Shown in pieces: positions 5,042-29,212 of a DNA stretch of 31,354 nucleotides; position 1 is the first letter of the stretch, and every line of letters begins with the position of its first letter. The notes under the pieces are model-generated. The model had not been told where the DNA came from. It saw nothing but the letters and a program-made list of their open reading frames with translations, and did no database searches. The stretch spans positions 457 to 31,810 of the forward strand of contig DBEI01000037.1 of NCBI GenBank assembly GCA_002294445.1, given 5' to 3'. The stretch comes from Patescibacteria group bacterium UBA910. Its GTDB lineage: Bacteria > Patescibacteriota > Minisyncoccia > Phycocordibacterales > DATDWN01. The position numbers and the translations under genes were made by a program.

Positions 5042-5128
5042 GGAGGATTGGATGAGTGGCTTAAATCAACGGTTTACTAAACCGTCGTTCGGGAAACCGA
5101 ACCGTGAGTTCGAATCTCACATCCTCCG
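5042..5128 (+). tRNA. tRNA-Ser with anticodon ACT
   Basis: Acceptor GGAGGAT/ATCCTCC, discriminator G; anticodon stem ACGGT/ACCGT with loop TT-ACT-AA (5074-5080); long variable arm GTTCGG-GAAA-CCGAAC; T-arm GTGAG-TTCGAAT-CTCAC. Confidence 0.9.
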
Positions 5129-5316
5129 CAAATGAAAGACACCCTCCGGGGTGTTTTTCATTTGCAGAGGAAAGCAAAACTGGAAGTTTTGAGGGTGAGA
5201 TTCGAACGACGGAGCGGGCACCCATCGAGCACGATGGGTCGCGAGTCGGTGCCCAGTCTAAAATTTTTTGACGAAAAAATTTTAAGGCGAGGGAGAAATT
5301 CTCACATCCTCCGCAA
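5129..5316 (+). repeat. tRNA 3' trailer element, copy B
   Basis: Hairpin 5124-5169; antisense T-arm copy at 5195-5207; shared core 5197-5298; 17-bp exact repeat of this tRNA's 3' end at 5300-5316 (equals 5115-5131). Confidence 0.85.
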
Positions 5317-18711: not shown

Positions 18712-18721
18712 AATTTTTATG

Positions 18722-18794
18722 TGCGCGCACATGGACTCGAACCATGGACCGTTCCGGTATAAGCGGAATGCTCTACCAACTGAGCTATGCGCGC
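18722..18794 (-). tRNA. tRNA-Ile with anticodon TAT
   Basis: Acceptor GCGCGCA/TGCGCGC, discriminator A; anticodon stem TTCCG/CGGAA with loop CT-TAT-AC; T-arm CATGG-TTCGAGT-CCATG. Confidence 0.92.
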
Positions 18795-22442: not shown

Positions 22443-22851
22443 GGGGGTGTCAGGTTTTGACATAGTCTGCATCCGTTCGCGCACTACAGAGTTCTAGTCA
22501 CTCTCAAAACAACTAGAAACCATACGTGTAAACAATACTGTTGCACGAGCAAAAGCTTCTGTTTCTCCATACTTTGGAGTAAACGACTTTGCTTTCTCTT
22601 ACGCACGAGCTTAATTTTAAGACTCGTCCCTAGGAGGGGGTGATACATCTGATATCTCATACGATGCCTCATTCATATAACCTTGAGATCCGGTCACTTC
22701 CCTGTTTCAGGATTTGACTCAAAAAATGAAACTCGCCTTTTTCTTGTTTTGTGTATTTTATAGAGAAAAAGTCTAAACGTTAAAATATTCTATGTAGTGT
22801 AGACCCGTTCGTATTCTCTCTATGCACGTGGTTTCGATACCACCATCTCCA
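22443..22851 (+). ncRNA. ssrA: tmRNA
   Basis: 5' GGGGGTG pairs with 3' CATCTCC (including G3-U70), discriminator A; T-arm GTGGT-TTCGAT-ACCAC; internal tag frame 22528-22614; adjacent to smpB. Confidence 0.9.
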
Positions 22852-22970
22852 CTGCTTCGCTAAAGCTACGCAGTGCAAGCACTAAATACCTTTAGCACAT
22901 CAAACTTCACTCAACACGTGAGGTTTTTTGTTAGCGAAGAAGTGGATCCTGTGTAGCCTTGGCGAAGCAG
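22852..22970. repeat. Inverted-repeat element preceding the GIY-YIG gene
   Basis: CTGCTTCGCTAAAGCTACGCAG (22852-22873) vs reverse complement of 22949-22970 (CTGCTTCGCCAAGGCTACACAG), 19/22; a partial third copy TTAGCGAAG at 22931-22939. Confidence 0.75.
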
Positions 22971-27185: not shown

Positions 27186-28553
27186 TTAACAATCAAGTAA
27201 GTATGGTTTACCTCTCTCAGGATAAAGTGCATCCACATCAAGATAATCCCTCAGTCGCTGTACCAGAAAAAGTGATGCCTTCGGCTCCCCCATGACCACA
27301 AAAACTTTTTTTACTGTATCTGCAGTATCTGCAATCATTTCAAGTAAATGTTCGGAATCCTTATGAGATGAATACCCTGATATCATCTCAATACGTGCTC
27401 GTACTGGAATACGAACACCTTGAATGACAACCTCAGCAGGTGCTTCCTGAATAGTTCTCCCAAGCGTACCAATCGCTTGATACCCCATCAGTAGAATAGT
27501 ACTCTTTGGATCAGGAAGATAATTAACCTCGTGATGTACTACCCGCCCCCCAGCAGACATACCAGACCCTGCAATGATAATCTTTGGATTTGGTTCGGCA
27601 AGAAGTGATTTTGATTCATTTGAATCTTTCACAATACGAAGCTTGGGAAAATTGAAAATATCATCTCCACCTTTGATTTCTTTTTGTACTCCTTGATTAA
27701 AATATTTTGAAGTGTGTCTATATATATCTGTTACTTTAAGTGCAAGTGGAGAGTCGAGAAACACTGGCACCGAAGGAATCTGCTTTTCTTCCACCATGTT
27801 ATTGATTTCATATAAAATAACCTGTGTGCGCTCTAGTGAAAATGCAGGGATAACAATAGTGCCCCCACGTGCAATCCCCTCCTTAAGGATCCGTTTGAAT
27901 TTAGCATCACGCTCTTCTTTACTCTCGTGATTTCTGTCACCATACACACTATCCATAACCACATAGTCCACGTTTTTTATTTTTTCTGTGTCTTTGAGAA
28001 GTGGCGTTGGTGAATTACCTGCATCTCCAGTAAAAAGAATTTTTTTAGTTCCATAGGTAAACTCATACATAGACGAACCGAGAATATGCCCTGCATCCTT
28101 GAGAAATACAGAAAACTCATCATTGATCTTTGTTTGTGTATGATATGGAATGGTGCGCCAATGTGACAACGCTTTATCAAGATCATCTTGTTCATAGAGT
28201 GGAGCCTCCTGCCTTTCTCGCTTGTTTTGCTCCATAATCTTTAATGCGTCAGTGAGCATGACCCGAGCAATCTCTTTTGTTTCTGGAGTAGAAAACACAG
28301 AGCCAGTAAAACCATCTTTAAAGAGCTTTGGAACTTTTCCAATATGATCCATATGGGCATGAGTAATAAACGCATAATCAATTTCTCCAAGGTTGTACGG
28401 AAAATCACCTGAATTTTCTGAATCAGCTTCAGGAACACCCTGTAGTAACCCACAATCAACAATAAAAGCTGAGTATTCTCCTTTAACAAGGAAATTTGCC
28501 CCCGTCACAGACCCTACCCCACCCCAAAATGTAATTTCAAGTTTCTTAGACAT
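27186..28553 (-). CDS. MBL-fold beta-CASP nuclease (Ysh1/COG1236-like)
   Basis: Motifs VDCG, THAHMDHIG, DAGHILGS, FTGD, GSGMSAGG and SSHKD. Confidence 0.92.
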   Translation of the reverse strand: MSKKLEITFWGGVGSVTGANFLVKGEYSAFIVDCGLLQGVPEADSENSGDFPYNLGEIDYAFITHAHMDHIGKVPKLFKDGFTGSVFSTPETKEIARVMLTDALKIMEQNKRERQEAPLYEQDDLDKALSHWRTIPYHTQTKINDEFSVFLKDAGHILGSSMYEFTYGTKKILFTGDAGNSPTPLLKDTEKIKNVDYVVMDSVYGDRNHESKEERDAKFKRILKEGIARGGTIVIPAFSLERTQVILYEINNMVEEKQIPSVPVFLDSPLALKVTDIYRHTSKYFNQGVQKEIKGGDDIFNFPKLRIVKDSNESKSLLAEPNPKIIIAGSGMSAGGRVVHHEVNYLPDPKSTILLMGYQAIGTLGRTIQEAPAEVVIQGVRIPVRARIEMISGYSSHKDSEHLLEMIADTADTVKKVFVVMGEPKASLFLVQRLRDYLDVDALYPERGKPYLLDC

Positions 28554-28938
28554 TCTTCTTTTCTATATTATGTACAAATACAATACCAAGCACCGCACCC
28601 AGAGTATCCATGACGATATCCATACCGGTATCACCCCAATATTCAGGAGATGCAAGATCTGTTGCTCCAATAATCAATTCAAAATATTCCCACACCAGCC
28701 CAACAAGTATGGTAAATACTGCCCCAAGTAAGAGTTTTTCTATATACGAAAGTTTTGATTTAAATAATGAGAGTGTCCAAAAGAAAAAGAGTACAACAAA
28801 AAGCCCACCCAAAAAATGCATAACCATATCGAACCATATTACAGTCCAAAAAAGATAGAGTTTATACGCAATTGCATTTAAGACCCCAACAACAAAGAGA
28901 ACCCAAAACATAGCACGAAAGAGTGTACTTTTTTGCAT
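28546..28938 (-). CDS. VanZ/DUF2238-like membrane protein
   Basis: Motifs WFDMVMHFLGG, VWEYFE and DTGMDIVMDTLGA. Confidence 0.6.
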   Translation of the reverse strand: MQKSTLFRAMFWVLFVVGVLNAIAYKLYLFWTVIWFDMVMHFLGGLFVVLFFFWTLSLFKSKLSYIEKLLLGAVFTILVGLVWEYFELIIGATDLASPEYWGDTGMDIVMDTLGAVLGIVFVHNIEKKNV

Positions 28939-28988
28939 ACCACTAATGATACCTCGAACAGAGGTGAAATTCAAAACATATAAAACCA

Positions 28989-29023
28989 ACAAAAAATCTC
29001 ACACAAACGTGTGAGATTTTTTG
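28989..29023. terminator. Terminator hairpin with A/T flanks
   Basis: AAAAAATCTCACAC-aaac-GTGTGAGATTTTTT. Confidence 0.8.
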
Positions 29024-29024
29024 T

Positions 29025-29160
29025 AGGGTCGCGGTATACTTCCTAAGTTAAAAACTTAGGTGGGTGCCCGCACAAAGCAATCTTAGAGCTTACGCCCACT
29101 AATAGCTTAAAATATAAGGCTCCCTGAAAAATGGTTAGCTAGAAAATATACAGCAACCCT
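29025..29160 (-). ncRNA. Candidate orphan structured RNA (6S-like or novel)
   Basis: Ends pair (AGGGTTGCTGTATA / TATACCGCGACCCT); internal stems; promoter immediately upstream and terminator immediately downstream. Confidence 0.55.
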
Positions 29161-29166
29161 ATTCGC

Positions 29167-29194
29167 ATTATACCCCACTCATTCATTCCTGCAA
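29167..29194 (-). promoter_or_regulatory. sigma70 promoter for the candidate RNA
   Basis: TTGCAG-16 nt-TATAAT, 6 nt before the closing stem. Confidence 0.65.
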
Positions 29195-29212
29195 CTTATT
29201 AGATTTGAAAGT

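Follow-up and report, generated by a model that had tools for sequence, protein, structure and literature searches.

The locus studied here raises the question of what is encoded by a short segment on the minus strand downstream of ndk, which a preliminary description had taken for a stand-alone ncRNA, either a compact 6S-like RNA or a new four-way-junction class. It lies within a stretch of 31,354 nt, hereafter the window, from a genome assembly of 585 kb that is 82% complete and belongs to an ultra-small bacterium of the Patescibacteria (CPR). The features of the segment, from the promoter to the terminator, are as follows.

29167-29194, minus strand: sigma-70-type promoter, read from the sequence, with -35 TTGCAG (29194-29189), a 16-nt spacer and -10 TATAAT (29172-29167).
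29024-29160, minus strand: RNA body of ~136 nt, comprising a closing stem, a central bubble, the GGGAGCC/GGCACCC helix, an apical stem and a 3' bubble hairpin.
29143-29159, minus strand: 5' strand of the closing stem (GGGUUGC, a U mismatch, GUAUAUUUU), pairing with 29026-29042.
29125-29142, minus strand: 5' strand of the central bubble (CUAGCUAACCAUUUUUCA), left single-stranded by the covariation-supported structure and presumed to serve as the pRNA template.
29118-29124, minus strand: GGGAGCC, which forms the 5' half of the invariant helix bordering the bubble upstream and pairs with GGCACCC at 29068-29062.
29069-29117, minus strand: variable apical (terminal) stem, capped by a GNRA loop (GUAA) in this genus.
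29061-29068, minus strand: 3' half of the invariant helix (GGCACCC plus A), unchanged in 29 of 29 close homologues.
29042-29060, minus strand: 3' bubble hairpin (CCUAAGUU-UUU-AACUUAGG), corresponding to the 3' bubble ('release') hairpin of 6S RNA.
29026-29041, minus strand: 3' strand of the closing stem (AAGUAUAC, a C mismatch, GCGACCC), the partner of 29143-29159.
28985-29024, minus strand: intrinsic terminator with a 16-bp stem, a GUUU loop and a U-run, directly after the RNA.

The window also holds a tmRNA gene (22443-22854, plus strand, 61.9 bits), a tRNA-Ile with anticodon UAU (18721-18794, minus strand) and a tRNA-Ser with the rare anticodon ACU (5042-5129, plus strand).

Direct reading of the sequence confirmed the minus-strand promoter TTGCAG-16-TATAAT where it had been placed. 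The RNA start was assigned to A29160/G29159, 6-7 nt past the -10, at AGGGUUGC. A simple promoter scan left this promoter unlisted, since its -35 agrees with TTGACA at only 3 of 6 positions. The terminator, likewise anticipated directly after the RNA, was found at 29024-28989 with its 16-bp stem and U-run. Moreover, the claimed absence of an ORF was upheld, as neither strand has one of at least 30 aa in 28993-29212, the interval that separates 28992 from the ndk stop (29213). Among the 65 distinct homologues analysed below, a TATAAT-like -10 (at most one mismatch) is present in 60, nearly always 5-7 nt upstream of the model start; TTG stands at the -35 position in 34, and a hairpin with a U-run directly follows the RNA in most. 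We found no RNA-seq support for transcripts in the public sequencing runs searched. The runs that contained the sequence in a search of any kind of data look like DNA metagenomes (aquatic and freshwater, sludge, wastewater, soil and other environments), and two runs from an RNA-only search, their kind unrecorded, contained relatives' contigs continuing past the promoter. The conserved promoter and terminator argue for expression.

We then examined how widely the RNA is conserved. With the RNA as BLASTN query, all seven species of the genus and 28 of the 60 family genomes yielded homologues, each with a TATAAT box of its own and usually with a terminator. A covariance-model search recovered the RNA itself at G000:C13:29477-29616 (window 29021-29160) with 124 bits. 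An even sample of 151 genomes from the order was searched with R1, a covariance model from an alignment of 29 homologues (A1), and 116 of them contained a single full-length copy; in the high-quality genomes of the order the count was 102 of 133 (~118 families). With a second covariance model, R2, one full-length copy was identified in each of 28 genomes from a phylum-wide sample of 151. An exact-word scan of genome contigs with a 15-mer of the core returned mostly chance matches in GC-rich genomes. The stand-alone ncRNA of the preliminary description is thus supported by its own promoter and terminator, the lack of an ORF and the order-wide conservation of a covarying RNA; judged from its sequence, it is a conserved, independently transcribed, single-copy housekeeping RNA gene. 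One genome, G063, carries two tandem copies of the 6S-like RNA (C5:28582-28705 and 28927-29069), while every other genome has one.

The 136-nt RNA folds with -47 kcal/mol (z = -3.7 versus dinucleotide shuffles). Base pairs were counted on alignment A2 (67 sequences, 65 distinct homologues), which was fitted to the covariance model, and the pair counts therefore lean towards that model. In A2, 92.7% of the base-pair cells are standard pairs, whereas sliding the 3' partners by 1-3 columns leaves 38-48%. Compensatory changes, which had been proposed as a check on the relatives' homologous RNAs, were found at 31 of 37 pairs of this model-fitted alignment, and the pairing and covariation values were reached by none of 500 shuffles. 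With an alignment made by MAFFT only, double changes were found at 19 of the 31 RNAalifold pairs.

The covariation-supported fold contains seven helices, with the closing stem in three segments, and an unpaired 5' strand of ~17 nt. The end-to-end stem, first given as ~14 bp, comprises ~15 bp with one mismatch (GGGUUGC/GCGACCC and GUAUAUUU/AAGUAUAC); in the 65 homologues its three segments (helices 1-3) have compensatory changes at all 15 pairs, with 86-95% of cells paired. The first 4-5 nt of the central-bubble 5' strand can extend this stem instead of remaining open. The GGGAGCC/GGCACCC helix contains an A.A mismatch, is paired in 98.9% of cells and shows C-G to U-A covariation at two pairs. 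The perfect hairpin CCUAAGUU/AACUUAGG at 29060-29042, also recognized earlier, gained covariation support in the 65 homologues as helix 7 (89% of cells paired, compensatory changes at 3 of 6 pairs), and it stacks directly on the closing stem. Invariant or nearly so throughout these homologues is the bubble-flanking GGGAGCC ... GGCACCCACCU.

Two other arms drawn in the preliminary description fared differently. The UAGCU/AGCUA arm is peculiar to the window sequence and missing from the six other species of the genus, and the same holds for the GUGGG/CCCAC arm, whose CCCAC belongs to the invariant GGCACCC strand, the partner of GGGAGCC. Because both arms are unconserved and CCCAC pairs as part of GGCACCC, the proposed four-way junction was abandoned, and the fold deduced from the aligned homologues is a three-way 6S-type layout.

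The apical stem is variable in length and sequence, and the whole RNAs span 120-257 nt across homologues; its basal pairs (helices 5-6) covary strongly. In the apical stem of many relatives (L016, L018, L021, L023-L025, L027-L030 and others), we observed C/D-box-like motifs, CGAUGAG ... CUGACGAG, in which a tandem G.A is followed by U.U and then by G-C, resembling a K-turn or loop-E module. The window's genus carries a plain GNRA-capped apical stem in their place. The 257-nt homologue at L011:1297-1553 (G060) has a ~120-nt hairpin-forming insert in its apical domain, and this insert may be a small mobile repeat.

Next, the RNA was compared with the Rfam 6S RNA family, RF00013, whose model has 187 positions and a gathering threshold of 46.4 bits. 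The window RNA gave no match to RF00013 at gathering, at E <= 10 or in a whole-genome search, and the cmscan check suggested for the window copy accordingly returned no 6S RNA. Rfam at E <= 10 also found nothing relevant on the locus and on 20 close homologue loci. In 41 relatives, the sole RF00013 match (23.1 bits, G062:C2:6811-6883) lies inside an R1 match (G062:C2:6777-6908). We found that the Rfam 6S consensus '...uuuuuauaauaGGGagccc...gggcaCCCACCUggaA' is, in the cmscan alignment, the invariant core of the window RNA family, CAGGGAGCC ... GGGCACCCACCU: GGGAGCC matches 'GGGagccc' and the GGCACCC plus A strand matches 'gggcaCCCACCU' of that consensus. Similarly, 6 of 20 further homologue loci of the order gave RF00013 matches of 20-26 bits exactly on the RNA, several of them global, and no family other than RF00013 recurred on the RNA itself in these loci. 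In the global alignment to RF00013, the closing stem, the 5' bubble, the core helix and the 3' bubble map one to one, with deletions in the closing-stem internal loop (model positions ~17-30) and in the terminal stem.

In the phylum sample, R2 and RF00013 coincide in place and strand in nine genomes (G314, G225, G320, G308, G324, G302, G284, G309 and G251), among which only G314, with 46.8 bits, exceeds the RF00013 cut-off; the RF00013 scores of homologues elsewhere in the phylum are 31-47 bits. Conversely, R2 run with its filters off matches all 10 RF00013 loci at the same position, 7 of them at E < 1e-3, and the matches at E < 1e-3 include 5 of the 7 RF00013 loci above the Rfam cut-off. The compact 6S-like RNA suggested earlier, with its closing stem, open 5' region, 3' hairpin and apical stem, is therefore supported by the shared core sequence, by sub-threshold RF00013 matches and by reciprocal model matches. 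Because the core is shared and R2 and RF00013 match each other's loci, we regard the window RNA as the 6S RNA orthologue of its lineage, and 29160-29024 (minus strand) is very probably the ssrS gene, encoding a compact, divergent 6S RNA with its own sigma-70-type promoter and terminator. Against this assignment stand the missing RF00013 match of the window copy and its length of ~136 nt, much shorter than the 187-position Rfam model. According to the preliminary description, the RNA would no longer be novel if Rfam gave a strong 6S hit. No such match occurs here, but the chain of homologues reaches Rfam-certified 6S RNAs, with the same effect: the window RNA is ordinary in kind, a 6S RNA and not a new kind of RNA, and is notable only in that the standard Rfam model misses it in this lineage. 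In the literature searched, we found no paper relevantly joining 6S RNA with Patescibacteria, Saccharibacteria or CPR. Just downstream of the 6S gene in G100 (L019/L157:1683-1800), we observed a sub-threshold match to RF02625 (Wolbachia sRNA 46), at 44.2 bits against a cut-off of 65.3.

The flanking genes share the strand of the RNA, in the order M24 peptidase of methionine-aminopeptidase type, NDK, RNA, a 130-aa hydrophobic protein without a Pfam match and a beta-CASP/RMMBL metallo-hydrolase. At 27186-28938 of the window and at the homologous loci, the ~130-aa hydrophobic protein and the beta-CASP/RMMBL ribonuclease-type gene lie almost always 3' of the 6S gene on the same strand. Across 67 loci, ndk is upstream in 58, the membrane protein is downstream in 52 and beta-CASP is downstream in 58, all on a single strand, and the order ndk, RNA, membrane protein, beta-CASP is kept even beyond the class. 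One extended reading builds on this arrangement. The RNA would be the smallest natural form of 6S (down to ~120 nt), in many lineages with a K-turn-like module in place of the apical domain, and locked between ndk and the membrane-protein and beta-CASP genes. It would have a role beyond polymerase sequestration, such as linking expression of the ribonuclease operon downstream to its own processing or read-through. We consider this reading unlikely.

The same arrangement could also be expected of a cis-acting leader, that is, a riboswitch or attenuator controlling the downstream membrane-protein and beta-CASP ribonuclease genes via the terminator at 29024-28989. The layout of promoter, structured RNA, terminator and a same-strand gene ~50 nt past the terminator would suit such a leader, as would the gene order, which persists on a single strand in 52-58 of the 67 loci and also beyond the class. 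However, homology ties the RNA to 6S RNA; the terminator is located beyond the closing stem, with which it neither overlaps nor competes; several loci keep the RNA without the membrane-protein gene; the promoter scan listed a promoter-like TTGAAT-17-TATCAT between the terminator and the downstream gene; and no riboswitch or Rfam cis-regulatory family matched the window, the locus or the homologue loci. A cis-acting leader is thus very improbable in comparison with a 6S RNA gene.

Given that the apical domain is where the homologues differ most, we also weighed whether the RNA derives from 6S and no longer acts on RNA polymerase, having taken another role, for example as a protein-binding scaffold. 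The apical domain of E. coli 6S contacts the sigma region 4 side, and here that domain is truncated and variable, the RNA is unusually short and many relatives carry the C/D-box-like CGAUGAG...CUGACGAG in the apical domain. Yet the invariant parts are those of the polymerase-facing bubble, namely its 5' strand, the GGGAGCC/GGCACCC helix and ACCU with the hairpin, as the classic function would produce, and we therefore hold such a loss of function to be highly unlikely. A new, unrelated four-way-junction RNA class, in favour of which stands the lack of any Rfam family reaching threshold on the window copy, is scarcely credible, since two of its four proposed arms are unconserved, the covariation fold contradicts it and reciprocal model matches link the RNA to members of RF00013. 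That the RNA is a divergent form of the lineage's missing SRP (4.5S) RNA is almost certainly wrong: it is a single-copy housekeeping RNA of suitable size and no SRP RNA is detectable in 40 relatives, but in the genomes sampled the protein partners Ffh/FtsY are likewise not found, there are no covariance-model matches (RF00169 / RF01854), the window RNA has no AGCA/GGAA motif and its apical loop is the most variable part, whereas the apex of SRP RNA is a conserved GNRA tetraloop with a symmetric loop. RNase P RNA was rejected as well; none was found in the window's own genome, and the window RNA is far too small.

As a separate observation, no SRP component was detectable in genome G000 and 190 other Patescibacteria genomes. 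The small SRP RNA (RF00169) was found in 0 of 41 genomes, and the large SRP RNA (RF01854) in 0 of 40, the latter being the weaker result, with its control positive in only 9 of 14 reference genomes and above the cut-off in 3; for most SRP models the controls were positive in 12-14 of 14 reference genomes. The Ffh M domain (PF02978) was found in 0 of 41 genomes in the order and 0 of 151 in the phylum, and the SRP54 GTPase model (PF00448) gave only P-loop-level matches, none above the cut-off. TIGR00959 and TIGR00064 had no real match in five closed genomes. In tblastn against G000, the best E value of E. coli Ffh was 0.067, compared with 9e-51 for the TrmD control. We found no paper stating the absence of SRP in Patescibacteria; 'Sec-SRP (secDEFGYA and yidC)' was attributed to a patescibacterium with ffh and ftsY unnamed (PMC13059738). 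If real, this absence would leave a phylum without an otherwise near-universal co-translational targeting pathway.

Returning to the 6S RNA, its probable mode of action can be sketched by analogy. 6S RNA imitates an open promoter and holds back RNA polymerase, as do E. coli 6S and B. subtilis 6S-1. In the same way, the rod of the window RNA with its central bubble would mimic an open promoter and occupy the active-site cleft of the housekeeping sigma-RNA polymerase holoenzyme, and this occupancy would damp transcription as growth slows. When nutrients return, the polymerase would template a short pRNA on the 5' bubble strand (~29138-29125), running into the closing stem. Synthesis of the pRNA would free the strand AACUUAGG, upon which the 3' hairpin would form and the RNA would be released. 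From this analogy we infer RNA polymerase binding by the window RNA and pRNA synthesis on it; the genome has a gene for a primary sigma factor containing region 1.2.

We further studied the pairing alternatives at the bubble. CUAG, the first four bases of the 5' strand, can pair with the 3' strand of the hairpin and thereby extend the closing stem. This extension helix is paired at 76% across homologues, and one of its pairs is G-C in 31 and C-G in 13, in step with the hairpin; the RNA can form either the extension or the 3' hairpin but not both at once, and each of the two is largely conserved. In the free minimum-energy fold of the window RNA, the extension is used and the hairpin is missing, and when the 5' strand is masked, which mimics the pRNA hybrid, the hairpin forms. 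Across homologues, the hairpin was predicted in 50 of 62 masked RNAs versus 33 of 62 free RNAs, and the full extension was used in only 4 of 62 free-RNA folds. A switch between extension and hairpin is therefore plausible for this genus on the basis of the predicted folds, but, because the hairpin is already predicted in those 33 free RNAs, it would not be a general rule.

These results point to an annotation gap, in that the 6S RNA of a whole order and of much of the phylum is left uncalled by Rfam-based pipelines; adding the A2 sequences to the RF00013 seed would mend the annotation. Transcription regulators are very scarce in these ultra-small bacteria, and a factor that acts globally on RNA polymerase may therefore be important to their growth, which is host-dependent and stop-and-go. 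Moreover, the compact form delimits a minimal 6S core, consisting of the closing stem, a 17-nt template strand, the GGGAGCC/GGCACCC helix and the 3' hairpin, which could guide structural work.

Finally, we compared the RNA with known 6S RNAs. With the RNAs of RF00013, including E. coli 6S and B. subtilis 6S-1, it has in common a stand-alone gene in one copy per genome, the rod-like succession of closing stem, central bubble and terminal stem, a bubble flanked by the core 'GGGAGCC ... GGCACCCACCU', and a 3' bubble strand able to fold back as a hairpin on part of the closing-stem strand. It differs in size, the window family being ~120-160 nt and RF00013 6S RNAs ~185 nt, and in architecture, with a closing stem that is without the internal-loop segment and a terminal stem that is short and variable; members of the order score 0-26 bits against the cut-off of 46.4. 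The genomic setting differs as well, as the window gene follows ndk whereas the E. coli gene lies before ygfA. Similar to the window RNA in size are the Rfam-certified 6S RNAs of other Patescibacteria classes (L212-L218), which measure ~150-160 nt by Rfam and 116-128 nt by R2; R2 matches coincide with them in place and strand, scoring 29-44 bits for L212, L214, L215, L217 and L218. In these RNAs the canonical closing and terminal stems are retained well enough for the Rfam cut-off to be passed (46.8-73.2 bits), which is not so in the window's lineage. A naturally shortened 6S RNA of ~160 nt, with a stable hairpin in the 3' bubble, is found in Aquificales (Aquifex aeolicus). The Patescibacteria form resembles it in the shortening and in the 3' bubble hairpin, and, taking that size for the Aquificales RNA, is shorter still.
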